Assembly (NCBI GenBank): GCA_038231455.1
Contig: JBBRLI010000010.1
Coordinates: 64,747-128,746, forward strand
From: Vulcanimicrobiales bacterium
GTDB taxonomy: Bacteria; Vulcanimicrobiota; Vulcanimicrobiia; Vulcanimicrobiales; Vulcanimicrobiaceae
Reading direction: 5' to 3'
DNA: 64,000 nt
The position numbers and the translations under genes were made by a program. The notes under the pieces are model-generated. The model had not been told where the DNA came from, searched no databases, and saw nothing but the letters and a program-made list of their open reading frames with translations. Positions 5,711 through 37,556 of this stretch are shown in pieces. Positions within the stretch are counted from its first letter, which is position 1, and every line of letters starts with the position of its first letter.

Positions 5711-6601
5711 ATGCCGAAAACCGAACACTGGCAGTGGTATGTCGAGGAATTCGCCCCAACCGAATTCCACCACCACGCTATCGACGAAACCTATTACGCC
5801 GGAACGACACCGTTCCAATCGGTCGCGGTCATTCGCACGCCGGTCTTCGGGAAAATGCTCGTGCTCGACGGCGACACGCAAAGCTCGCAGCACGATGAGA
5901 AAATCTACCACGAGTCGCTCGTGCATCCAGCGCTTGCCGCGTGCGAAACCCGGGATGAGGTGCTGATCCTCGGTGGCGGCGAGGGCGCGACATTACGCGA
6001 AGTGCTGCGACATCCCGGTGTGAAGCGCTGCACGATGGTCGACATCGACGGCGAAGTCGTGGAGCTCTCGAAAAAGTATTTGCCCGAGTGGGCCGATGGG
6101 GCGTTCGAAGATCCGCGGGCCCGCGTTATCATTGGCGATGCGCTCGCATTCTTAAAAGAAGATACGGGTTCGTATGCCGCAGTGATCTCCGATCTGACCG
6201 AGCCGCTGCCGGACTCCCCGTCGTTCCCGCTCTTCAACGGTGAGATCTTCCGCGACATCAAGGCGCGCCTGGTTCCCGGCGGCGTTTACGTGCTGCAAGC
6301 TAGCACCGCGGGCTTCCATAATATGGCCTTGCACGCAAAGATGGCCCGTTCGCTGCGCTCGCACTTCAAGCACGTGCGCAGTTTCTACACCCATGTTCCC
6401 GCCTTCGATAACGATTGGGCGTTTATCGTGTGCAGCGATCGCGCGGATGTCGCGAAGCTGGATCCAGCGACGATCGATGCGTACGTCGCGCAGCTGCGGG
6501 GCGAAAACTACTTCTACGATGCCGAGACGCACCGGCGGCTCTTCAGTTTGCCCCGCTACTTGCGGGCCGAACTGGAAAAATCAGGCGACGTTTTCCGTTA
6601 A
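5711..6601 (+). CDS. speE: Spermidine/polyamine aminopropyltransferase
   Basis: FGKMLVLDG, YHESLVHP, LILGGGEGATLRE, VDID, DLTEP motifs. Confidence 0.93.
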   Translation: MPKTEHWQWYVEEFAPTEFHHHAIDETYYAGTTPFQSVAVIRTPVFGKMLVLDGDTQSSQHDEKIYHESLVHPALAACETRDEVLILGGGEGATLREVLRHPGVKRCTMVDIDGEVVELSKKYLPEWADGAFEDPRARVIIGDALAFLKEDTGSYAAVISDLTEPLPDSPSFPLFNGEIFRDIKARLVPGGVYVLQASTAGFHNMALHAKMARSLRSHFKHVRSFYTHVPAFDNDWAFIVCSDRADVAKLDPATIDAYVAQLRGENYFYDAETHRRLFSLPRYLRAELEKSGDVFR

Positions 6602-6799
6602 CGTCGCCACGACGAGCAGCGCGAGCTGGGTGCGCTTGCTCAGCGAGAGCTTCCGGAAAATCGATTCTAGGTGGTGCTCCACCGTCCGCGAGCTTACGAC
6701 GAGCTCATCTGCGATGCCGCGGTTGCTCAAGCCGCGCGCGACCAGGGCGGCGACTTCGCGTTCGCGCTGGGTCAGCAACTCGAGTGGTTTGAGCAACAA
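6581..6799 (-). CDS. Stand-alone LuxR-type HTH regulator (~72 aa)
   Basis: LTQREREVAALVARGLSNRGIADELVVSSRTVEHHLESIFRKL; TTG start inferred from a GGAG SD. Confidence 0.8.
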   Translation of the reverse strand: MLLKPLELLTQREREVAALVARGLSNRGIADELVVSSRTVEHHLESIFRKLSLSKRTQLALLVVATLTENVA

Positions 6800-6884
6800 G
6801 GCGACTCCGGATGCAAAGCAGGTCGGATGGCGAACTCGGCACGATGTGAATCGCACACCGTGCTTTCCTTGGACATCGGCATAA

Positions 6885-7316
6885 GTGGCCGAGAAAATAA
6901 GCGTTGACCCCGCCGCTCTTTTGGCGGGCTGGTCAAGCGAGCGAGCGCCGTTCGTCGCGCTCCTGGGCTTAGAGCTGCTGGATATCGGCAAGGGCACGGC
7001 GCGCATGCGGATGCCGTATCGACGCGAGATCACCAATGGAACGAGCGCCATCCACGGCGGCGCGATCGTTGCCCTGTGCGATTCGGCGTTTTATCTTGCA
7101 CTCGCTTCGATCTACGGGCACGAGCAAGAGACGACAACTGCTGCGCTCTCGTGCAATTTTCTCGCACCCGCGATTCCGCCGCACGACCTCATCGCCGAGG
7201 CGGAGGTTCTCAAAGCCGGTCGGCGCATCGTTTACGGTGAGGTGCGCGTGACCGGTGGGGATCGTTTGGTCGCGCACGCGACGCTCAATTTTCTCAATAC
7301 GCCGCCCAAGAAATAG
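6885..7316 (+). CDS. PaaI-family hotdog-fold thioesterase
   Basis: NGTSAIHGGAIVALCD motif; LKAGRRIVYGEV. Confidence 0.85.
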   Translation: MAEKISVDPAALLAGWSSERAPFVALLGLELLDIGKGTARMRMPYRREITNGTSAIHGGAIVALCDSAFYLALASIYGHEQETTTAALSCNFLAPAIPPHDLIAEAEVLKAGRRIVYGEVRVTGGDRLVAHATLNFLNTPPKK

Positions 7317-7322
7317 GTCATC

Positions 7323-8426
7323 ATGGTTAGCGAACCAATTCTCCGTCGTACCGCGCTCTTCGACGCGCACCGCGCCCTCGGCGCGAAGATCGTGCCATTC
7401 GGCGGCTTCGAAATGCCCGTGCAATATGCCGGCATCCTCGCCGAACACGACGCCGTGCGCAATCGCGCGGGGCTCTTCGATCTCTCGCACATGGCGCAGT
7501 TCGAACTCCGTGGTGAAAACGTCGCTGCGTGGGCAGATTCGCTCACGGTCAACAACGTCGCGACGATGAAGCCGCTGCAAGCGCGCTACAATATTTTCCC
7601 AAACGAACATGGTGGCGCGCACGACGACGTGATCTTCTATCGTTTGCCCGATCGCTGGTTGCTCGTCGTGAACGCCGGAAATGCCGACAAAATGTGGGCG
7701 CACATCAACGCCCATCGATCGGGCGACGTGAAGCTGACCAACTTTCACGGTGTCCGCGCGCTTATCGCGATTCAAGGCCCGCGCTCGGTTGAAATTTTGC
7801 AAGAATTTGTCGACATCGAGCTCGCGCCGATGAAATACTACACGTGTGCCGAGGCGACGATTGGCGGCGTGCGCGGCGTGATCGCGCGAACGGGTTATAC
7901 GGGGGAAGACGGCTTCGAACTCTTCGTCGAGGGCGATGCCGCGACGGCACTTTGGGATGCAATCTTAGCTGCTGGTCGCGCGCACGGACTCGAACCCGCG
8001 GGCCTTGGGGCGCGCGACGTGCTGCGCCTGGAGGCGGGCATGCCGTTATACGGCCACGAGATGACCGAAGAAATCGGTCCGATTCAAGCGGGACTCGGCT
8101 GGGCAGTAAAACTCACAAAGCCCGCCTTTCGCGGCAAAGCCGCACTCGAGGCACAATCGGCCGACGCGACGCTTCCGAAGATTGTTGGCATCGTGCTCGA
8201 CGGCAAAATCCCGGCGCGTGCGGGATATCGCGTGGTTCACGATGGCATCGATGTCGGTGAGATTCGCAGCGGGTCGCTCGGTCCGTCGGTTGGAAAAAAT
8301 ATTGCGACGGGTCTGCTCGCACCGGGTGCTGCAACCATCGGCTCAAAAGTGAGCGTCGAGATTCGCGGGACACCTCACGACGCAACCGTCGTCGAACTAC
8401 CGTTCTACAAACGCCCCAAAGTTTAA
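7323..8426 (+). CDS. gcvT: Glycine cleavage aminomethyltransferase T
   Basis: FGGFEMPVQY, GLFDLSHM, ARTGYTGEDGFE, GLGARDVLRLEAG motifs. Confidence 0.97.
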   Translation: MVSEPILRRTALFDAHRALGAKIVPFGGFEMPVQYAGILAEHDAVRNRAGLFDLSHMAQFELRGENVAAWADSLTVNNVATMKPLQARYNIFPNEHGGAHDDVIFYRLPDRWLLVVNAGNADKMWAHINAHRSGDVKLTNFHGVRALIAIQGPRSVEILQEFVDIELAPMKYYTCAEATIGGVRGVIARTGYTGEDGFELFVEGDAATALWDAILAAGRAHGLEPAGLGARDVLRLEAGMPLYGHEMTEEIGPIQAGLGWAVKLTKPAFRGKAALEAQSADATLPKIVGIVLDGKIPARAGYRVVHDGIDVGEIRSGSLGPSVGKNIATGLLAPGAATIGSKVSVEIRGTPHDATVVELPFYKRPKV

Positions 8427-8438
8427 GGAGAGCACCAC

Positions 8439-8822
8439 GTGGCGCAGCCGGCCGGACTTCTGTACAGTAAAGAACACGAGTGGGTGAAGATGGACGGCGA
8501 TGTCGCCACCGTCGGTATCACCGAATACGCGCAAAATTCGCTCGGCGATATCGTCTACGTGGAACTGCCGCGCATCGGCGCGGAACTCCAGCAATTCGGC
8601 AACATCGGCGTAATCGAATCCGTGAAAGCGGTCTCGGACATCTACACGCCCGTCGGCGGTGAAGTGGTCGAAGTCAACGCCGAACTCGAGGCCGATCCCG
8701 CGCTGGTCAACCGCGAACCATTCGGCACGGGCTGGCTCTTCAAAGTGAAGCTCGCCGATGTCACGCAGAATCAAAATCTGCTCTCACCCGAAAAATACGA
8801 CGAACTCGTCGCCTCCGCTTAA
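8439..8822 (+). CDS. gcvH: Glycine cleavage H protein
   Basis: HEWV...GITEYAQ...IESVKAVSDIY lipoyl-Lys motif. Confidence 0.97.
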   Translation: MAQPAGLLYSKEHEWVKMDGDVATVGITEYAQNSLGDIVYVELPRIGAELQQFGNIGVIESVKAVSDIYTPVGGEVVEVNAELEADPALVNREPFGTGWLFKVKLADVTQNQNLLSPEKYDELVASA

Positions 8823-9157
8823 GGCTGGTCGGCGGGGTGGTTCACCCGCATCGTCGAGCCGAATAAATAGCCGCCGCGCGCGTGCGAAAACTGGATGATC
8901 TCCGGGTCGCCGATGCGCGTGCGCAGACGGTGGATCGAAACTTTGAGCGCGTTGACGGCAACGCGCTCTTCGATTCCCGGGAGGACCATCGCGCCTAAAT
9001 CGGCGGGCGCGATCGGCGCACCGTGGATCGCAAGCGATGCGATGATAGCAAAGTCGCGCTCGCTGATGGGTACGGGCCGGCCTTCCCGCGTTAGCTGGCC
9101 GACCGCAAGATCTAAATCGTAAACAACCCGCCGGCCCAGGCGATAGACTCCATCCAT
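8819..9157 (-). CDS. Stand-alone OmpR/PhoB-type winged-helix DNA-binding domain protein
   Basis: GRPVPISERDFAII...LKVSIHRLRTRIG...ARGGY resembles Trans_reg_C; own promoter TTCACG-17-TATACT just upstream. Confidence 0.7.
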   Translation of the reverse strand: MDGVYRLGRRVVYDLDLAVGQLTREGRPVPISERDFAIIASLAIHGAPIAPADLGAMVLPGIEERVAVNALKVSIHRLRTRIGDPEIIQFSHARGGYLFGSTMRVNHPADQP

Positions 9158-9263
9158 GGCCGATGGAGTATAGCCCAGGCGGCCGCTTGCGTGAATAGGG
9201 ATTTCCACCCATTGTTCGGGAACCTGAAACGGTTCCGCCCCAGCCGTCAGTCTAACGAGGGTC

Positions 9264-10628
9264 ATGTACACACCGCACACGCAGCGCGACATCGAGGCGA
9301 TGCTCCGCCTCATTGGCGCATCGTCGCTCGACGAGCTCGTCAAAGTCCCCGATGCCGTCGCCATCAAGGTTCCGCTCGAAGTCGCTCCGGCGCTTCCGGA
9401 GTCCGAACTCACCCAGCGTTTTGCGAGCTTCGCAGCGCGCGTCGGCGCGACGGACTATATCTCGTTTCTTGGCGCGGGGGCGTACCGGCATTACGTGCCC
9501 CCGGTGATCGCGACGCTTGCGATGCGCGGCGAATTCCTCACCGCCTATACGCCATACCAGGCGGAAGTCTCACAAGGCTATCTGCAGGCGATCTACGAGT
9601 GGCAGAGTTATATCGCGCTTCTCACCGGCATGGATGTCGCGAACGCCTCGGTGTACGACGGAGCGACGGCGCTTGCCGAAGGCACGATCATGGCGGTGAA
9701 TGCAACGGGTCGCAAAGCCGTCCTCGTCTCACGCGCCGTGCATCCCAACTATCGTGCCGTCCTTCAGACGTACGCCGATGGGCTCGATCTCGATGTCGAC
9801 GAGCTGCCGTACGCCGCTGAGGGCACGACCGATCTTTCGTCGATCGAAGCCGCGCTTGCCGATCAGCGTTACGCCGCTGTCGTTCTTCAAACACCAAACA
9901 TGTTCGGCGCGCTCGATGCACTGCCGAGCGGCATGGCCGAGAAGATCAAGGCAACCGGAACGCTCGTCATCGGCGTGATTGCCGAAGCGCTTTCACTTGC
10001 CGCACTCGCAACGCCCGCATCATGGGGCGTCGATATTGCCGTTGGTGAAGGGCAGAGCTTCGGCGTGTCGCTGGCGTACGGAGGGCCGTATGTCGGCTTC
10101 ATCGCCTGCACGACCGAACATTTGCGCCGCATCCCCGGACGCCTGGTTGGCAAGTCGCTCGACAAAGATGGCAACGAGGCGTACGTTCTCACGTTGCAAG
10201 CGCGCGAACAGCATATCCGCCGCGAAAAAGCGACCTCGAACATCTGCACCAATCAAGCCCACTGCGCGCTCGTCGCGACGATCTATCTTGCAGCGATGGG
10301 CAAGACCGGGTTGCGCAACTGCGCCTCGGCAAACCTCAAACGCTCGCGCGAACTCGAAAAAGCGGTCACCGCAATCGACGGGTTCACGAAGCGTTTCTCC
10401 GCTCCGTTTTTCAACGAATTCGCCGTTCGCGTGCCGGGCGGCAGTGCCGGTAGCGTCCTCAAGGCCCTGCAGAAACAGGGTATTCTGGGGGGCGTCGACC
10501 TCGGCCGCTGGTATCCCGAACTCGAAGACACGATCCTGATGACGGCGACGGAAGTCACCACGGATGCGGACATCAAGCAGCTCGTCGCTGCACTCCAGGA
10601 GGTTCGCAGTCTTGCCGGCGTTCGCTGA
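9264..10628 (+). CDS. gcvPA: Glycine dehydrogenase subunit 1
   Basis: YTPYQAEVSQG, ANASVYDG, QAREQHIRREKATSNICTNQ motifs. Confidence 0.97.
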   Translation: MYTPHTQRDIEAMLRLIGASSLDELVKVPDAVAIKVPLEVAPALPESELTQRFASFAARVGATDYISFLGAGAYRHYVPPVIATLAMRGEFLTAYTPYQAEVSQGYLQAIYEWQSYIALLTGMDVANASVYDGATALAEGTIMAVNATGRKAVLVSRAVHPNYRAVLQTYADGLDLDVDELPYAAEGTTDLSSIEAALADQRYAAVVLQTPNMFGALDALPSGMAEKIKATGTLVIGVIAEALSLAALATPASWGVDIAVGEGQSFGVSLAYGGPYVGFIACTTEHLRRIPGRLVGKSLDKDGNEAYVLTLQAREQHIRREKATSNICTNQAHCALVATIYLAAMGKTGLRNCASANLKRSRELEKAVTAIDGFTKRFSAPFFNEFAVRVPGGSAGSVLKALQKQGILGGVDLGRWYPELEDTILMTATEVTTDADIKQLVAALQEVRSLAGVR

Positions 10629-12111
10629 AACCCCACTGATCTTCGACATCGGCCAAGACGGTCGGGCGAACAACTATTTTGCCGAAGGCGCGCCGCTCTC
10701 GGATTTTCTCCCCAAAGAGGCGCTCCGCGACGAACTACCGCTGCCGGATAATAGCGAACTCGACGTCGTGCGTCACTTCACGCGCCTTTCGCAAAAAACG
10801 TTCAGCATCGATACGAATTTCTATCCGCTGGGCTCGTGCACGATGAAGTACAACCCGCGCGTCAACGACGCGATGGCGAATCTTCCGGCGCTGCGTGATT
10901 TGCATCCGCTCGTCCCCGACGAACTCGCGCAAGGAGCGCTCGCCGTCATGTGGGAGCTGGAGAAGAGCCTGGTCTCGCTCTTCGGCATGGCCGCATTCTC
11001 GCTCAACCCCGCCGCCGGCGCGCACGCCGAACTCACGGCGCTCCTCATCGCAAAGAAGTACTTTAAAAAGTACGGTCAGGCGTTGACGCGCACGACGGTG
11101 ATCGTCCCGGACACCGCACACGGCACGAACCCCGCTTCCGCAGCGATGGTCGGCTTCAAAGTCGTTTCGCTCAAGTCCGATGCGCGCGGACGCGTCTCGG
11201 TCGAGGAAATCAAAAAAGCGATCGGCCCCGATACTGCCGTCGTCATGATGACGAACCCGAACACCCTGGGCCTCTACGAAGATCAGATCAAAGAAATCAC
11301 CGACGCGGTGCACGACGTCGGCGGCCTGATGTACTACGACGGAGCAAACGCAAACGCGCTCATGGGCAACTCGCGCCCAGGCGACATGGGCTTCGACCTC
11401 ATGCATCTCAATCTGCACAAAACGTTCTCGATTCCGCACGGCGGCGGCGGCGCGGGCGCAGGCCCCGTCGGCGTCGCGCGTCACCTCGTGCCGTTCTTAC
11501 CGACCCCCGTCGTGCGCGCAACGAACATCGTAAGCGAACACGAAGGCTGGCGCCCAAGCGACGAGATGACCTTCGCACTCGACTTCAACCGCGAAGACTC
11601 CATCGGAACGATGCGCTCGTTCTGGTCCAATTTCGCGCACATGGTCCGGGCACTCTCATACACCTATGCAAACGGCGCCGAAGGCCTAACGATGGTGAGC
11701 AAACTCGCCATCCTTAACGCCAACTATATCCGCGCCTCAGTCAAAGACCTCATCGAAATCCCCTACGACGAATACAACCGCCACGAATTCGTAGCTAGCG
11801 CCCAAGCCTTAAAACGCGAAACGGGCGTACGCGCCCTCGACATCGGCAAAGCACTCCTCGATCGCGGCTACCACGCCCCAACGGTGTACTTCCCGCTCCT
11901 CGTCCCCGAGTGCCTCATGATCGAACCAACGGAAACAGAATCAAAAGAAACACTCGATGGCTTCATCGCCGCCTTCCGAGAAATCCTAACAGCAGCCCGA
12001 GAAAACCCACAATCAATCATGGACGCGCCAATAAACACCGCAGTAAAACGAATCGACGAAACCCGAGCCGCCCGCCAACCCGACCTCCGGTGGCGACCAG
12101 CCCCAAAGTAG
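10612..12111 (+). CDS. gcvPB: Glycine dehydrogenase subunit 2
   Basis: YPLGSCTMKYNP, AHGTNPASA, HLNLHKTFSIPHGGGG, IEPTETE; TTG start after GGAGG. Confidence 0.97.
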   Translation: MPAFAETPLIFDIGQDGRANNYFAEGAPLSDFLPKEALRDELPLPDNSELDVVRHFTRLSQKTFSIDTNFYPLGSCTMKYNPRVNDAMANLPALRDLHPLVPDELAQGALAVMWELEKSLVSLFGMAAFSLNPAAGAHAELTALLIAKKYFKKYGQALTRTTVIVPDTAHGTNPASAAMVGFKVVSLKSDARGRVSVEEIKKAIGPDTAVVMMTNPNTLGLYEDQIKEITDAVHDVGGLMYYDGANANALMGNSRPGDMGFDLMHLNLHKTFSIPHGGGGAGAGPVGVARHLVPFLPTPVVRATNIVSEHEGWRPSDEMTFALDFNREDSIGTMRSFWSNFAHMVRALSYTYANGAEGLTMVSKLAILNANYIRASVKDLIEIPYDEYNRHEFVASAQALKRETGVRALDIGKALLDRGYHAPTVYFPLLVPECLMIEPTETESKETLDGFIAAFREILTAARENPQSIMDAPINTAVKRIDETRAARQPDLRWRPAPK

Positions 12112-12134
12112 TGGGCAAAAAACAAAACCGCATG

Positions 12135-12169
12135 AAAAAACGGAGTCGGGATCACCGACTCCGTTTTTT
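12135..12169. terminator. Intrinsic terminator after gcvPB
   Basis: AAAAAACGGAGTCGG-GATCA-CCGACTCCGTTTTTT. Confidence 0.9.
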
Positions 12170-12407
12170 ATTTGCGAAACGAGTTCGCTTCAAAAACCGC
12201 TTTCAAGTCCGGCGGCAAGTCATCGATCTCCTGAACCTGCCGAACCTTATAAATCCGTGTTCATCCCAAATCTCACCCGACATGAAAGCGTCGATCGAAC
12301 AACACCAATTTCGACAACCCAACACCAATAGTTCGCCACCACCCCCCCTCTCTACAAAACCCCACCGAACCCAACGCCACCGTTGCGACCGAAAGTCGTG
12401 CCGGAGG

Positions 12408-12576
12408 GGCTGGTGGGGTGCGTTGCCGGTGGGGTCTATGAGCTTTTCGCGGAGCGTGTTGGCCCAGCGTAGGCTGGGACAACACATCAGGATGGCGGGA
12501 GCGAAAAGTCATGAAGCAGGGCTTTTCCAAGGACGGGAAAGCCCGGCGTCCCCACCGGCAACCCGCCCCGCCAGCC
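12408..12576 (+). repeat. Structured dispersed repeat element, copy 1
   Basis: 27-bp terminal stem (12408-12434/12550-12576) enclosing conserved internal hairpins; homologous to 37216-37359. Confidence 0.85.
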
Positions 12577-12651
12577 ACTCACGACACAATCCCCGAACAA
12601 AACGAAGTGACGAACAAACGTTCGATGGGGTAGTTTCTTCTTGGCCCCCAT

Positions 12652-12660
12652 TGCTATAAT
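12652..12660 (+). promoter_or_regulatory. Extended -10 promoter for the NUDIX-scpA-scpB operon
   Basis: TGCTATAAT (TGnTATAAT). Confidence 0.6.
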
Positions 12661-12703
12661 AAAAGGTACCCCCGAACCACGGGGAGCGCTCGGGAAAGCA
12701 ACG

Positions 12704-13195
12704 ATGCGGATCAAATATGAGGTGTCTGCCGGAGGGCTAGTCCTCCGTCGGAATGGAGCTCAGCTCGAGGCCCTGCTCATCGGCAGAGGCCAGCCTCGCG
12801 TATGGTCCTTGCCCAAAGGGCACGTCGAACATCGCGAGACCCACGAGCAAGCCGCCTTGCGCGAAGTCCGCGAAGAAACCGGCTGCTGGGCCGAGATCCT
12901 CATGAAGCTCTCGGATATCTCGTACTGGTTCTACCTGAACCGCAGCAAGCACAAAAAGTCGGTCCACTTCTATTTGATGCGCTATCTCTCAGGCGATACG
13001 GCCAACCACGACCACGAAGTCGATGAAGCCGCCTGGTTCGAGATCCGCGCGGCGAAGAAAAACCTCAAGTACGTCAACGAAAAGCGCCTGATCGACCTTG
13101 GCCTGGAGTATCTCCAAGCCGAAGGCACCGGTCTCTTCGAGACCGAGACCGTTGCGCTCGTTACTGAGGCTCTCCAGGACATCAGCGCAGGTTGA
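12704..13195 (+). CDS. NUDIX hydrolase
   Basis: SAGG...WSLPKGHVEHRETHEQAALREVREETG Nudix box. Confidence 0.92.
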   Translation: MRIKYEVSAGGLVLRRNGAQLEALLIGRGQPRVWSLPKGHVEHRETHEQAALREVREETGCWAEILMKLSDISYWFYLNRSKHKKSVHFYLMRYLSGDTANHDHEVDEAAWFEIRAAKKNLKYVNEKRLIDLGLEYLQAEGTGLFETETVALVTEALQDISAG

Positions 13196-13956
13196 ACCCG
13201 GGCGCCCCCGTCGAGGACGAGCGCGCCTGTCGTGTTTCGCTCGCCAATCTTTTTGATGGCCCACTCGATCTGCTCCTGAGTCTGGTTAAGGAACGCCAAC
13301 TCGACATCGCGACGGTGCCGCTGGCGCTGGTCTGCGACCAATATTTTGCCTTCATCGAGGCGATGGAGTCGATCGACGTCGAGCTTGCCGCCGAATATCT
13401 CGTGATCGCGGCCACCTTGGTGTTCCTCAAGTCAAAGGCGATGCTGCCGGCGATTCCGGCCGAGTTCGAGGATGCCGAAGAGTCCGCCGAGGTGGTCGAG
13501 CAACGTCTGCGCGAGCGCCTAGTTGCCTACTCCATCTACAAGGCCGCGGGCGATGAGCTCAAAAGCCGGGCCGATGAAGCCAAGGCCTTCTACCTGCGCG
13601 ACGCCGGCGACCCGACAACAGACATCACCCAACGCTACCGCATCAATGCAGCGAAGCTCTCCGCGGCCCTGGCGGCTGCGTTGCGAGCGGCGAAGCCCGA
13701 GAAGCGCACCATCGTTCGCGAGCGCGTCTCGCTCATCGAGCAGATGGAGCTGGTCGCCCGCACGGTCCGTACCCAGGGCCGGGCGTCATTTTTCGAACTG
13801 TGCTTGGGCCTGGATCGCGGCGGGATCATCGTGACGTTCCTTGCTGTTTTGGAACTGGTTCGGCGGCGCCGGCTGGTTTTCGCACAGAGTAACGCCTTCG
13901 CCGACATCGAACTCTTGCCGCTCGTGGAAGATCCGATACCCGCCAATGCAAACTGA
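13192..13956 (+). CDS. scpA: Segregation and condensation protein A
   Basis: FDGPLDLLLSLV, AAEYLVIAATL, IIVTFLAVLEL motifs. Confidence 0.93.
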   Translation: MNPGAPVEDERACRVSLANLFDGPLDLLLSLVKERQLDIATVPLALVCDQYFAFIEAMESIDVELAAEYLVIAATLVFLKSKAMLPAIPAEFEDAEESAEVVEQRLRERLVAYSIYKAAGDELKSRADEAKAFYLRDAGDPTTDITQRYRINAAKLSAALAAALRAAKPEKRTIVRERVSLIEQMELVARTVRTQGRASFFELCLGLDRGGIIVTFLAVLELVRRRRLVFAQSNAFADIELLPLVEDPIPANAN

Positions 13957-14656
13957 CGAGCTCGCTCCGCCGGCCGAGGCCGCCGCCGAGCACGAGCCCA
14001 TGCAAACCGAACTGATCGAGACCGGGACGCTGCAGCGCAGCATCGAGGCGGTCCTTTTCGTCGCCTCCGAGGCGCTCTCGATCAAAACGCTCTCCAAACT
14101 CACCGGCGCGGAAGAAACCGAAGTCGCGCGGGCACTTCAGCAGATCGCTGAGGACTTCGGCGATCGCGGCATCGTGCTGCGCGAGATCGCCGGCGGCTAC
14201 CGCTTCGCGAGTTCCTCGGCCGCGCGCGAAGTCGTCGAAGCCTATCTCTTGCCGCCGAAGACCAATCTTTCGCCCGCGGCGCTCGAGACGCTCGCAATCG
14301 TTGCGTACATGCAACCCGTAACGAAGAGCGAAGTCGAAGGCGTACGCGGTGTCAGTGCGGATTCGGTGATCTCGACGCTCGTCGACCGGCGGTTTCTCGT
14401 TGAAGGCGGCCGCAAAGAAGTTGCGGGTCGTCCGATCCTCTACAAGACGACGGCCGAATTCTTGGAAGCCTTTGGCTTACGCAGTTTAGAAGAGTTGCCG
14501 CCAATCGACATCGATGCGGGTCTGCCGATCGAAATGGCGCTCCCGATTCCGACCGAAACGGTCGCGACCGCCATCGACGAAATCGTCGCCGATGAGATTG
14601 CAGAAGAAGCAAAATCAACCGAAGAGAGCGAGACAACGGAATCAACACCCACGTGA
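13946..14656 (+). CDS. scpB: Segregation and condensation protein B
   Basis: IEAVLFVA, LSPAALETLAIVAYMQPVT, GRPILYKTT..FL..FGL motifs. Confidence 0.95.
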   Translation: MQTDELAPPAEAAAEHEPMQTELIETGTLQRSIEAVLFVASEALSIKTLSKLTGAEETEVARALQQIAEDFGDRGIVLREIAGGYRFASSSAAREVVEAYLLPPKTNLSPAALETLAIVAYMQPVTKSEVEGVRGVSADSVISTLVDRRFLVEGGRKEVAGRPILYKTTAEFLEAFGLRSLEELPPIDIDAGLPIEMALPIPTETVATAIDEIVADEIAEEAKSTEESETTESTPT

Positions 14657-15894
14657 TGAACGACGATGACGCGATTTGGGATCGTATCGACGCGAACTGC
14701 CAAGCCGTTGCGATCGCGCACGAATTGATCCAGCCCGGTGAGACCTTCAGCCTTACCGAAGACCAAGGAAAAGCGGTCGATGCGATCTGCGATGGTCTCG
14801 AAGACGGCGGCTTTGAATTCTTGCTTAAGGCACCGACAGGTTCGGGAAAAACCGAAGTCATGATGCGCGTTGCGGTCGATACGATTCTCGCAGAAGACTC
14901 GTACATCACGCTGATCGCGCCGACGCGCGACCTCGTGCGCCAGCACTTCACGTACTTTACCGAACGCCTCGAAGGAACGGGACTCGGCGTTGCGCAGATT
15001 CATGGCGGCATTTCACCCGCCGAACGCAAAGCGACCATGGCGGGCCTCGCGGACGGATCGATCCGCGTTGTGGTCGGCTCGGCGATGATGCTCGTGAGCG
15101 ACCAGCTCTGGCGCATGATCGATGAGAGTTCTCTGCTGGTCGTCGACGACGTCAACGCGTTCGACGAGCGCGAACATCTACGGTTACTGGAAGATCTCGA
15201 CTGTCCGATGCTCTTCGCGACCGCGACGCCGGATGAGTTGCGCTCGTTTCTCACGCGCGTCGGTGCTTACAATAACGTCATTTCGATGAAGAAAATGCCG
15301 TTCGATGTCATTCCGACCAAAGTGCACAAGGTCGAAGGTGTCTGGGGCGAACCGCCGATCGAGCAGATGTCGCGCGCGGACGAACTCATCCGCATGCACC
15401 TCGAGCGCAAGTCGCGCATCTTCGTCATCAGCCGCACGCGCCACGATGTGCCCAAGCTCGCGCAGCGGCTCGAAGAGACGTATGGATTTCCGGTTCAGCA
15501 ATTGCGCGGCGATATGGCCGACACCGGCGAGCACAAGAGCCGCCACGCGCGTCGCGGAGTGAAAGTCAGCAACATCGGCACACGTGTTGAAATGATGGAA
15601 GCATTCCGTCGGGGGGCGCCCGCGATTCTCGCCGCGACCAATCTTGTCGGCAGCGGTCTCGACATTCCGGCAGCGGATCTCATCGTGATCACCGATGCCG
15701 ACGCATTCGGTGAGGGCGAGACAGAACAACTCATCGGTCGCGTCGGTCGCCGCGAGCGCCCCTCCGATGCCATTCTTCTCACCGGGACCACCTTTGAGAA
15801 AAATCCCTCGCGGTCGCTCGCCAGCGGTCGCGCCAAGACATTTATGCCGCGCGGCATGCGTGCCAACCAGTTACGTTTCACGCGTCGCAAGTAA
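14653..15894 (+). CDS. SF2 helicase-like protein, RecG-like core without wedge domain
   Basis: PTGSGKT, IAPTRDLVRQH, VVDDVN, ATATP, GLDIPAAD, QLIGRVGR motifs. Confidence 0.75.
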   Translation: MMNDDDAIWDRIDANCQAVAIAHELIQPGETFSLTEDQGKAVDAICDGLEDGGFEFLLKAPTGSGKTEVMMRVAVDTILAEDSYITLIAPTRDLVRQHFTYFTERLEGTGLGVAQIHGGISPAERKATMAGLADGSIRVVVGSAMMLVSDQLWRMIDESSLLVVDDVNAFDEREHLRLLEDLDCPMLFATATPDELRSFLTRVGAYNNVISMKKMPFDVIPTKVHKVEGVWGEPPIEQMSRADELIRMHLERKSRIFVISRTRHDVPKLAQRLEETYGFPVQQLRGDMADTGEHKSRHARRGVKVSNIGTRVEMMEAFRRGAPAILAATNLVGSGLDIPAADLIVITDADAFGEGETEQLIGRVGRRERPSDAILLTGTTFEKNPSRSLASGRAKTFMPRGMRANQLRFTRRK

Positions 15895-15900
15895 CCACCG

Positions 15901-16653
15901 ATGACGGACGTCGCGGCGAACAACGGCTCGTTTGACGACCTCGCGGCCGACTACGACCAGTACCGCACCGGATACAGCGCCGAACTCTTCGACGAACTCG
16001 TCGGCCTTGGAGTAACGCCGGGCACGATCGTTCTCGATATCGCCTGCGGGAACGGGATTGCAACGGCTCCACTCGTGGCGCGGGGATGCAAGCTCACCGG
16101 CGTCGATCCGTCCGAACCGATGCTCGCGAATGCCCGCACGCGCGTTCCGGCAGCGACGTTCGTTCTGGGCTACGCCGAGAAACTGCCGTTTGGCGACAAC
16201 CACTTCGACCACGCGATCTGCGCGCAAGCATTTCATTGGTTCGATCAACCACGCGCGTTTGAAGAGGCGATTCGCGTTGTCAAACCGGGCGGCAACGTGG
16301 CCGTCTGGTGGAAGCGGCTCACGCAGGATGCGGCGATTCGTGCGCTCCGCGATTCCGCGTATGAAGAAGTCGGCGTTGCGCCGCCAAAAGATGCGCTGGG
16401 CGGATCGTTCCGTGCTTACTACGGCGCGGCGTTTAGCGATCGACACCTGCGCGTGCTTCCGTTCACCTGGCGGACGACGGTGAAGACGTGGATCGGCTAC
16501 GAGCACTCGCGCGCGACCGCGCGCAACGCGTTCGGTGACAAGCGCGATGCGTATCTCAAAGCGCTCGAACGGCGTTTAGTCAAAGAGGCCGGTTCGCTTG
16601 AATCGGCGATGATCGCGCCGTACATGCAATACGTCTACATTGGAGTGGTTTAG
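15901..16653 (+). CDS. Class I SAM-dependent methyltransferase
   Basis: VLDIACGNG, GVDPS, AQAFHWFD motifs. Confidence 0.9.
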   Translation: MTDVAANNGSFDDLAADYDQYRTGYSAELFDELVGLGVTPGTIVLDIACGNGIATAPLVARGCKLTGVDPSEPMLANARTRVPAATFVLGYAEKLPFGDNHFDHAICAQAFHWFDQPRAFEEAIRVVKPGGNVAVWWKRLTQDAAIRALRDSAYEEVGVAPPKDALGGSFRAYYGAAFSDRHLRVLPFTWRTTVKTWIGYEHSRATARNAFGDKRDAYLKALERRLVKEAGSLESAMIAPYMQYVYIGVV

Positions 16654-37009: not shown

Positions 37010-37215
37010 GAATTAGGCAACCACCGCATCTGGACAAGAACGAATCTCGCCGTAACACCAGCCTCAGAACGACTTGCCAAAAAAAATCCGTTACAAAGAG
37101 TCACGAATCGCGCGCAAGCCTTTTCTCTTAAAAAAACAAGCATGCGACAATCCCACCACCCAAGACGGCAAGAAGAAGCAATCCACGAGTTTCTTACATT
37201 GCCGAGATCGCGCCG

Positions 37216-37359
37216 GGGCGAGGTGGGGGTTGGGCGGCGGCGGGGTGTCTGAGCTTTTTGCGGAGCCAGGATGGCGGAAGCAAAGAGTCAGCAAGTAGGC
37301 TTTTCCCAAGGATGGGAAAAGCCGGGCGTCCCCGCCGCCACCCAACCCCCACCTCGCCC
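37216..37359 (+). repeat. Structured dispersed repeat element, copy 2
   Basis: 30-bp terminal stem (29/30 paired) enclosing the same internal hairpins as copy 1. Confidence 0.85.
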
Positions 37360-37556
37360 AGCCACCACCGCCCCGGAGATAAAAAGAAACCAAGTAAAGA
37401 GAGTCGAATCCGTAACCCCATGTCGCATCTTGGGAACATCTCCGGGGTCCGAATACCGTCTCAAACCAGGGGCGGGGCAAAAACGTGCAATTTTACAGAA
37501 AAGCGAGGCATTGCCTCGCTTTTTGCGTCTACGCCGAAGAGCAAAGGGTTGAATTC

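Follow-up and report, generated by a model that had tools for sequence, protein, structure and literature searches.

The end of the gcvPB gene in the window, a stretch of 64,000 nucleotides (nt) from a Vulcanimicrobiales bacterium (contig JBBRLI010000010.1), raises the question of why the third codon positions of a conserved gene turn to A and C as they approach a non-coding, hairpin-forming repeat element. The window is part of contig C10 of the source genome, G000, a metagenome-derived assembly of 3.71 Mb in 106 contigs with 61% G+C. The congener used for comparison is designated G001. The best reading is that the skewed stretch, here called the halo, is a strand-specific mutational footprint anchored at the repeated element. 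AC3 denotes the fraction of third positions occupied by A or C, GT3 the G+T fraction, and A3, G3 and T3 the fractions of the single bases. The features that carry the argument are the following, in coordinates of the window.

10564-12111, + strand: gcvPB, glycine dehydrogenase subunit 2, 515 amino acids (aa) (open reading frame (ORF) list; Pfam GcvP2_C 7.9e-25, Aminotran_5 and GDC-P).
11314-12108, + strand: the halo part of gcvPB, AC3 rising from 0.70 to 0.90, A3 up to 26 of 50.
12131-12170, no strand assigned: hairpin with a 9-bp stem and a 5-nt loop, an A-run before it and a T-run after it (direct sequence inspection).
12171-12393, + strand: A/C-rich non-coding spacer leading to the element, 66.8% A+C, single bins 59-78%.
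12394-12587, + strand: the structured repeat element, one of ten copies in the genome (nhmmer 7e-39; covariance model 96 bits, E 9.6e-18).

The final 56 sense codons of gcvPB have 26 A, 24 C, 5 G and 1 T in third position, compared with 3 A, 14 C, 18 G and 5 T at 10861-10980. These counts, made by hand in a previous sequence-only reading of the window, were reproduced exactly. The codons it had named as unusual for the genome were confirmed as such, being 5-18 times commoner at the end of gcvPB than in 895 long reference ORFs: CGA makes up 8.9% of the final 56 codons vs 0.64% in the reference, CCA 7.1% vs 0.42% and ATA 1.8% vs 0.10%. Its statements that the protein is conserved (97% identical between G000 and G001) and that the intergenic DNA in front of the element is A/C-rich also held. 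The start of the skew, placed by it at 11640, had to be moved. In blocks of 20 codons AC3 is 0.35-0.75 before that position and 0.75-0.95 after it, and over the whole gene it rises towards the element, from about 0.5 early in the gene to 0.70 already by codons 251-300 (from about 11314 on) and 0.90 at the 3' end. A segment of 760 bases from 11630 has an A+C content of 0.65 (z 5.25) and ranks first among 145,267 segments of the genome; at a size of 500 bases, three of 146,360 segments are equally extreme. The GC skew upstream of the element goes down to -0.45, with C strongly in excess of G. Logan contigs of run X1 agree with the window at every position of 11300-12468 and 12454-12900 (depths 11.3 and 12.7) and break inside the repeat, as expected of a repeat. 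Run X1 is probably the source sample, and the Logan contigs would thus be the same reads put together by another assembler.

The halo recurs at most copies of the element in the genome. In the kilobase 5' of each of the ten copies the A+C content averages 0.598, compared with 0.500 (sd 0.0084) in random sets, an excess (z 11.7) reached by none of 20,000 random ten-site sets. Eight of the ten copies exceed the genome's 99th percentile for A+C in the upstream kilobase, and of the eleven 760-base regions with the strongest skew in the genome, seven sit just upstream of a copy. Counted per 100 bases in element orientation, A+C is 50-53% at -3000 to -1500, 56-57% at about -1300 to -900, 60% at about -800 and 64-65% in the last 200 bases; downstream of the element the mean is 61% in the first 100 nt and then 50-55%. 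Pooled over eight loci, AC3 is 0.76 at 0-900 nt, 0.65 at 0.9-1.2 kb and 0.60 at 1.2-2.1 kb from the element, while with distance A3 declines (0.31-0.33 to 0.18) and G3 increases (0.17 to 0.30). The halo is strongest where it adjoins the element, fades over 1-3 kb, and lies always on the element's 5' side with A and C on the element's own strand. The earlier claim that the skew is polar and tied to the element is thereby upheld.

The orientation of the neighbouring genes does not alter this rule. Except for gcvPB, the names of genes beside copies are taken from translations and gene order, not from database matches. The upstream genes gcvPB, dnaA, a 563-aa gene and a sigma/anti-sigma-like pair are co-oriented with the element, and dnaX-ybaB-recR, gatCAB and two large ORFs are divergent. 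Near the element, AC3 is 0.90 in gcvPB, 0.82 in the 563-aa gene and 0.86 in a co-oriented 258-aa gene; the third positions of dnaX and of a 678-aa ORF, when read on the element's strand, give 0.88-0.94 and 0.76. On the coding strand of gatC-gatA, the first 1.2 kb have GT3 of 82-90%, T3 of 42-54% and A3 of 0-8%, and in gatCAB GT3 is down to 44-45% where gatB ends, some 3.3 kb from the element. The base gained in third position is A in co-oriented genes (gcvPB) and T in divergent genes (gatCAB, dnaX). The skew thus takes its sign from the element and is indifferent to the direction of the gene, which excludes codon selection and transcription of the genes themselves as the cause.

Read on the complement of the folding strand, the net change in the halo is C>T together with A>G, as the sequence-only reading had deduced. 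T/(C+T) is 0.55-0.73 across all four 5' neighbours and 0.59-0.84 across all four 3' neighbours, and G/(A+G) is 0.73-0.95 in all neighbour contexts. Because the skew is raised in every context, a motif-specific deaminase (APOBEC/AID or DddA-like) is unlikely, and this candidate was rejected, C>T not being confined to a preferred neighbouring base. Replication-associated strand skew was rejected as well. Regional GC skew, taken within 40 kb of the copies, is -0.03 to +0.05, too weak to assign strands; its sign varies when read in element orientation, no orientation rule is seen, and the halos are confined to 1-3 kb.

In the relatives compared, 28 genomes for gcvPB and 27 for gatA, orthologous genes that lack the element are unskewed at the corresponding end. 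Of 30 gcvPB loci only that of G000 has the element downstream; AC3 in the final 150 codons is 0.86 in G000, 0.72 in G001 and 0.42-0.61 in the 28 others, which include four unpublished genomes (G009, G020, G022 and G036). In the first 150 codons of gatA, AC3 is 0.15 in G000, 0.22 in G001 and 0.43-0.58 in the 27 other genomes, with one further locus cut and unscored. Relatives in other metagenomes mostly have G or T where the window has A or C, and in run X2, for example, the relatives differ from the window by A>G 31 times vs G>A 8 times and by C>T 37 times vs T>C 10 times.

The DNA of G000 and G001 is about 88-90% identical (0.81-0.89 in the skewed part of gcvPB), and six copies of the element are common to both. 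At the gcvPB locus of G001, about 1.1 kb of other sequence replaces the 530-nt spacer and element. At gatCAB (G001 loci L090/L091 on contig C33, compared with G000 C9:88787-88950) the element has been lost from G001 by a deletion across the base of the hairpin; its 5' leader is joined to its 3' tail, and the scar retains the last bases of the 3' stem arm together with the tail. As both leader and tail are kept, the element is ancestral at gatCAB. Judged from this scar, hairpin-spanning deletion is one route of copy loss. At both lineage-specific copies the genome with the element is the one that has moved further towards A/C. For the G000-only copy (gcvPB 11614-12063) the unpolarised differences are 33 towards A/C in G000 vs 12 away (p 0.002). 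For the G001-only copy they are 87 towards A/C in G001 vs 30 away at -1000 to -200 (p 1e-7), with an identity of 0.73-0.85 near the element vs 0.88-0.91 further off. Polarisation of the final 157 gcvPB codons with 23 outgroups, in which 41 differences were not polarisable, gave G>A 8, C>A 6, G>C 3, C>T 3 and C>G 2 on the G000 branch and C>T 6, C>A 2 and C>G 1 on the G001 branch. The expected G>A is thus the commonest change in G000, though C>A is nearly as common.

Some observations at single loci stand beside these comparisons. At the G001-only copy (L085, G001 C1 vs G000 C5) the region from -2600 to -1800 is reversed, G000 being more A/C-rich in 72 vs 30 differences over five bins. The upstream flank of the C12 copy is unmatched in G001, hence no comparison was made there. 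At the copy C10:101951 the corresponding stretch is 1,147 nt in G000 vs 50 in G001, and the upstream kilobase is therefore itself part of the difference between the two genomes. About 2 kb downstream of the C1 copy of G000, at C1:316400-317300, a strong A/C-rich stretch lies within a 630-aa ORF; this skew is due to amino acid composition (a lysine/alanine-rich tail) and not to the element. The copy at C4:199773-199934, common to G001, is located in the dnaA-dnaN spacer (L138, C4:196500-204000) and is the one old copy almost without a coding halo. The dnaA-dnaN spacer is the site of the replication origin in many bacteria.

The element itself is well defined. Copies were located by nhmmer and by a covariance model of a shortened core; the nine other G000 copies have nhmmer E values of 2e-43 to 8e-11, and the covariance model finds them too. 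A conserved (A)TCGTGCC at the 5' edge is followed by an outer stem of about 26 bp, G-rich/C-rich and variable between copies, then by a core with a three-way junction and two conserved hairpins, and finally by an A/C-rich tail. When six G000 copies were folded independently, 31 of 54 pairs had compensatory changes. In a set of 72 copies (69 distinct) drawn from 24 genomes, both partners vary at 33 of 34 core pairs. The paired share is 92.4%, vs 68.5% in shuffles and 30-50% with slid partners, and the covariation measures were reached by none of 500 shuffles. The alignment of the 72 copies was fitted to the model, which favours the structure, whereas the fold of the six copies is independent of it. 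One core pair occurs as U-G (39 copies), C-G (22) or U-A (8), and this conserved U-G pair identifies the + strand as the folding strand. Compensatory pairs and strand-specific wobble, which mark a structured RNA or single-stranded DNA element in general, are thus both present. Between orthologous copies of G000 and G001 the differences in the outer stem are compensatory pairs, and selection keeps the old copies folded.

Rfam 15 gave no family for positions 6000-16000 of the window at E of at most 1. The only match was terminator-like, a weak alignment of the hairpin at 12131-12170 on the - strand with E 0.14 and 21.8 bits, compared with a gathering score of 97. For 12330-12650 at E of at most 10, the best match was a plant microRNA precursor with 27.3 bits against a gathering score of 137, rejected as the match of a generic long GC hairpin far below that score. 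The hairpin at 12131-12170 reads as an intrinsic terminator that would work in both directions; a promoter and terminator consensus scan of 11500-12800 missed it, though it is plain in the sequence.

What produces the footprint is a matter of tentative choice. The best explanation, which we hold with rather less than even confidence, is a cis-acting start of one-directional synthesis or exposure of the complementary strand; this judgement covers prolonged single-strandedness and repeated lower-fidelity synthesis jointly. The element would act in cis as a fixed starting point, either by priming on the folded single strand, like the single-strand origin of a plasmid, or, where replication is stalled by the hairpin, by gap filling or nick translation. 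If the + strand is folded and primed, or if synthesis is restarted past the hairpin, the new strand would run into the halo region. The stretch could then be remade repeatedly by a lower-fidelity polymerase or left single-stranded, and both routes would leave C>T and A>G there, decaying over kilobases. Such a footprint would build slowly and would thus be visible only at old copies. The terminator-like hairpin between the element and the halo of gcvPB would hinder an effect borne by transcription but not DNA synthesis. That the element is a natural initiator of one-directional low-fidelity synthesis, or of persistent strand displacement, in the chromosome is a lesser possibility and on balance unlikely. 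If it were so, the element might be a dispersed, mobile single-strand origin or ColE1-like priming site, or a nick site, and each old copy a local mutator writing a strand-specific gradient a kilobase long into the genes on its 5' side.

A number of results weigh against the footprint reading and this mechanism. Within G000, the copies C31 and C10:101951 lie below the 99th percentile of upstream A+C, and at the dnaA copy AC3 is only 0.52-0.60 near the element, which leaves almost no coding halo. On the G000 branch the C>A changes in gcvPB, nearly as many as G>A, are not deamination changes. G001 retains the halo at gat although its element is a scar, and its gcvPB skew is intermediate where the element is absent; past presence of the element at gcvPB in that lineage is therefore assumed, not shown. 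The six common copies, used as a control, give 367 vs 259 in favour of A/C in G000, heterogeneous between loci. The halos of G000 are accordingly stronger in general, which makes the asymmetry test at gcvPB weak taken alone. In other genera the halo is small or lacking: the 41 near-identical copies fetched from G005 have an upstream A+C of 50-54%, the 12 copies of G017 are raised only in the last 300 bases (62, 58 and 54%), the eight copies of G019 reach only 54-57% over about 1.3 kb, and 21 copies from 15 other genomes have a mean of 48-55%. The presence of the element alone is insufficient for a halo. The near-identity of the G005 copies shows them to be young, which fits a slow build-up, but age as the reason for halo-poor copies is our inference, and a genus-specific factor explains them equally well. 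Nor does the replication-direction version of the model have support, copy orientation in the two chromosome halves of G005 being 12:13 and 12:4 on the assumption that the origin is at dnaA and the terminus lies opposite. No enzyme of the nickase, reverse transcriptase or deaminase kind could be tied to the element, nor was any priming, nicking or polymerase factor identified. The two copies in E. coli K-12 of the structured repeats called RRS, compared below, have no consistent compositional halo.

Loss of repair genes was considered as the reason why the halo is limited to the genus and was rejected, as their occurrence is identical: UDG is present in 31 of 31 genomes, endonuclease V in none of 31 and MutS in 31 of 31.

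On this evidence the interpretation given in the sequence-only reading is partly supported. The signature that it ascribed to deamination of single-stranded DNA fits, but error-prone Pol I synthesis gives the same two transitions over the same distance (PMC3167613), and C>A is left over. Its proposal that the element directs a local, directional process agrees with the polarity and the link to the strand, but not with the poverty of halos in other genera and the halos without an element in G001. That element and halo form a system not described before is in keeping with the lack of an Rfam match and of any such skew in the literature search reported below, but strand gradients as such are of a known kind.

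Outward transcription is the first alternative to be weighed against the anchored footprint, and we think it unlikely. A strong promoter at or near the 5' edge of the element, firing away from it, would keep the opposite strand non-template for 1-3 kb, and transcription-associated deamination, possibly together with R-loops from G-rich RNA, would give C>T and A>G there. Four copies lie 61-134 nt upstream of divergent genes (dnaX, two large ORFs and gatC), and transcription away from the element is therefore certain at those four. The halos also tend to be longer over divergent operons (about 3.3 kb in gatCAB, at least 1.8 kb in dnaX) and shorter over genes entered from the 3' end (about 1 kb in gcvPB, about 0.8 kb in the 258-aa gene), and the longer operon halos fit early termination of an untranslated antisense RNA. 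Mammalian genes have a promoter-proximal strand asymmetry of similar signature on a scale of 1-2 kb. However, the consensus scan found no promoter-like site on either strand of 11500-12800, and no common -10/-35 pattern was seen by eye on the opposite strand. A hairpin with T-runs both ways stands between the element and the strongest halo of the genome, whereas the dnaA copy has no such outward block and yet almost no halo. The gatA gene is presumably transcribed in the 27 other genomes, where it is unskewed, and the most skewed segments of the genome are mostly adjacent to the element, highly expressed genes not having been examined as such.

The second alternative, to which we give a clearly smaller chance, is that the skew arises in some other, genus-specific way and that the element inserts or survives beside skewed DNA, for example through a target motif common in A/C-rich DNA. 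A third factor of this kind would account for the skew that G001 has at gatCAB, and in part at gcvPB, with no intact element, for the copies in other genera without halos, and for the recurrence of a CCACCACCC-like motif in the upstream flank and the 3' tail. It is opposed by the gat scar of G001, which shows that the element was once present, by the shift towards A/C at both lineage-specific copies in the genome that bears the element, and by the 41 recent insertions in G005, which show no preference for skewed DNA. We know of no other feature with kilobase gradients that ignore gene orientation and yet always point at the element.

Selection on RNA is improbable. The RNA of the element would need a long, unstructured upstream transcript poor in G and U, for example as a loading zone for Rho or to protect the hairpin from mispairing, and synonymous sites would be pushed to A and C. 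The + strand fold is clearly selected, as seen from the compensatory changes between orthologous copies and the conserved U-G pair; from first principles an RNA of A and C only cannot pair with itself, and C is strongly in excess of G upstream. But the gradient extends to 3.3 kb and touches nearly every third position, for which selection per site would be far too weak, and at four loci the strand rich in A and C is the antisense strand of the genes there. Between gcvPB and the element stands a terminator-like hairpin, and the copies of other genera fold equally well without a halo. Misassembly, poor reads or recombination with a low-GC donor at the gene end, suggested by a drop of GC3 (the G+C share of third positions) in gcvPB from 0.79 to 0.63 in the final 150 codons and by the fragmented metagenome assembly, is largely refuted and hardly credible, as the other assembly of run X1 matches at about 11-13x depth, the same pattern is found at eight of ten copies and in the second genome of the genus from another assembly, T is depleted and not enriched, and the protein is 97% identical to that of the congener, with a nucleotide identity of 0.81-0.89 in the skewed part.

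Further features of the window around the element are as follows.

9264-10628: gcvPA, directly preceding gcvPB.
12456-12487, + strand: a 32-nt extra hairpin at the tip of the first inner hairpin of the element, seen in copy alignments in three of the ten G000 copies.
12588-12640, + strand: the A/C-rich 3' tail of the element, with a consensus beginning CAAGCCAC; A+C is about 50% beyond the tail.
12704-13195, + strand: a NUDIX hydrolase gene (Pfam NUDIX 2.2e-20), unskewed in the composition profile.
37205-37367, + strand: a second copy of the element (C10:101951-102113) with a short halo of about 200 nt.

The 32-nt extra hairpin is identical in the window copy and in the copies C4:164494 and C11:35960, and is missing from the G001 orthologues of two of these; either gene conversion between copies or a tiny insertion targeting the element would account for it. 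In the 5' flank of four G000 copies (C9, C11, C3 and C10:101951) a conserved module, AACGGCTAAGAAGAAG, and a CCACCACCC-like motif are found repeatedly, about 25-45 nt before ATCGTGCC, and CCACCACCC is also found after the 3' tail. The module and the repeated CCACCACCC may represent an extended boundary of the element or a target-site repeat. Runs X2, X3 and X6 contain relatives whose contigs join 12094 to 12605 or 12704, without the 510-610 nt that hold the hairpin, the spacer and the element in the window. In runs X2 and X3 these three behave as a single insertion or deletion of 510-610 nt. No RNA run was listed as containing this stretch; run X3, guessed to be RNA, covers only parts of it, with contigs of relatives.

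The number of copies per genome varies from 0 to 53 among 41 related genomes, with at least one copy in 24 of the 41, and many copies lie at contig ends. In the closed genome G005, which has 53 copies, the 41 that were fetched are near-identical and fall into two subfamilies of the outer stem. From the variable copy number, the positions at contig ends and the near-identity of the G005 copies, the element is judged to be a mobile repeat, like a miniature inverted-repeat transposable element (MITE; miniature and non-autonomous). Of the further marks of a MITE, a possible flanking repeat of 10 nt was seen at one copy only, and no autonomous partner of the element was identified. A Y1/RAYT transposase (PF01797) is present in six of the 41 genomes and was not found in G000, G001 or G005, assemblies that are 92-97% complete; an origin as repetitive extragenic palindrome (REP) or REPIN with a RAYT was rejected, since no PF01797 was found in the element-rich genomes. 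Reverse transcriptase (PF00078) occurs in two of 31 genomes (G003 and G015) and was not found in G000 or G001, which are 92-94% complete; retro-conversion by cDNA (diversity-generating retroelement, retron or group II intron) was dropped on this ground.

Pairs of copies lying head to head a few hundred bases apart are frequent. Examples are 2615043/2615330, 2586539/2587677 and 2743143/2748568 on C1 of G005, C26:23655/24012 in G017 and C3:254891-255785 in G015. Between one inverted pair of G005 there is a 143-aa ORF (L132, 5513-5944) that by its look is not a transposase, no library search having been made. At five G005 loci (L133-L137) the copies are reduced to the 3' half and are all preceded by the same conserved sequence of about 60 nt; the middle of the element seems to serve there as an insertion site for another repeat.

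If the element is causal, the local mutation rate and spectrum of a bacterial chromosome could be set by a mobile sequence, and conserved housekeeping genes (gcvPB, gatCAB and dnaX) could be recoded as a side effect. Sequence would then reveal, in an uncultured phylum, a DNA transaction otherwise hidden, be it priming, gapping, nicking or transcription running outward, and the element would be a naturally occurring local mutator whose activity is legible from the genome alone. It would also offer a natural model for tools of targeted mutagenesis in vivo. Scans for codon usage, gene transfer or selection would misread such halos, which calls for caution.

Strand-asymmetric mutation gradients are known for whole replicons, mammalian promoters and engineered plasmids. 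To our knowledge no dispersed repeat of a bacterium is naturally accompanied by a one-sided gradient of kilobase length that brings T to 54% of third positions at a genomic G+C content of 61%. The literature listings searched contain no description of a repeat-anchored local skew in bacteria. Gradients of this kind are known, but one tied to a dispersed chromosomal repeat, ignoring gene orientation and able to recode housekeeping genes, was not found described in the literature searched.

Vertebrate mitochondria have strand-asymmetric gradients of deamination. In organelles, the combination of C>T and A>G at synonymous sites is generally read as the time spent single-stranded (Krishnan and Rao 2009, PMC2695485). 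The organelle gradients resemble the halo in having the same changes at synonymous sites and in being measured from a structured origin; they differ in being genome-wide and following the replication of the genome, whereas the halos span 1-3 kb each, are some ten in number on the chromosome and belong to copies of a repeat.

The RRS of E. coli are GC-rich structured repeats of 222 bp at which, according to Pham et al. (2023, PMC10287960), single-stranded gaps peak at the end of the repeat and extend for 1.4-2.5 kb. They provide a precedent for the initial step of the proposed mechanism. Compared without regard to sequence relatedness, RRS and the element are alike in being GC-rich, structured and about 200 bp long, and the RRS gaps are one-sided like the halo. 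The two RRS copies flank the terminus symmetrically and exert their effect on the lagging strand, whereas the element has 0-53 copies and no visible link to replication direction.

REP elements, REPINs and MITEs are, like the element, short, non-coding, hairpin-forming and intergenic, with widely varying copy number. The recent burst of near-identical copies in G005 and the positions at contig ends are also REP- or MITE-like. In contrast to them, the element does not decay in its old copies, where compensatory changes preserve the fold. We know of no mutational halo for REP elements or MITEs, and the literature search found none described.

A further parallel is the mutational footprint of Pol I downstream of the ColE1 plasmid origin. 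On the strand made by an error-prone Pol I from a fixed start, Allen et al. (2011, PMC3167613) report C>T 140 vs G>A 29 and A>G 32 vs T>C 9 within 800 nt, with Pol III gradually replacing Pol I over at least 1.3 kb. Strand, transitions, polarity and scale match the halo. The data come from an engineered polymerase on a plasmid over few generations, whereas the halo is natural, chromosomal and evolutionary, and in that account ColE1 synthesis follows the direction of the primer RNA, whereas the halo lies 5' of the folding strand. By this analogy we infer that Pol I may be involved at the element.

The element can also be set beside the single-strand origin (sso) of rolling-circle plasmids. An sso is an imperfect palindrome of 150-200 nt that folds as single-stranded DNA in one orientation and primes synthesis of the complementary strand, which is first extended by Pol I; it has the conserved motifs RS-B and CS-6. 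Such motifs are not established for the element, where TAGCG[T/G] is found at the 5' flank of G005 copies only. The copies of the element are chromosomal, dispersed and MITE-like, and no rolling-circle replicon was noticed beside them, although no search for one was made. Orientation-specific folding is common to both, priming by the element being hypothetical, and priming of the sso type would put the new synthesis on the side and the strand of the halo.

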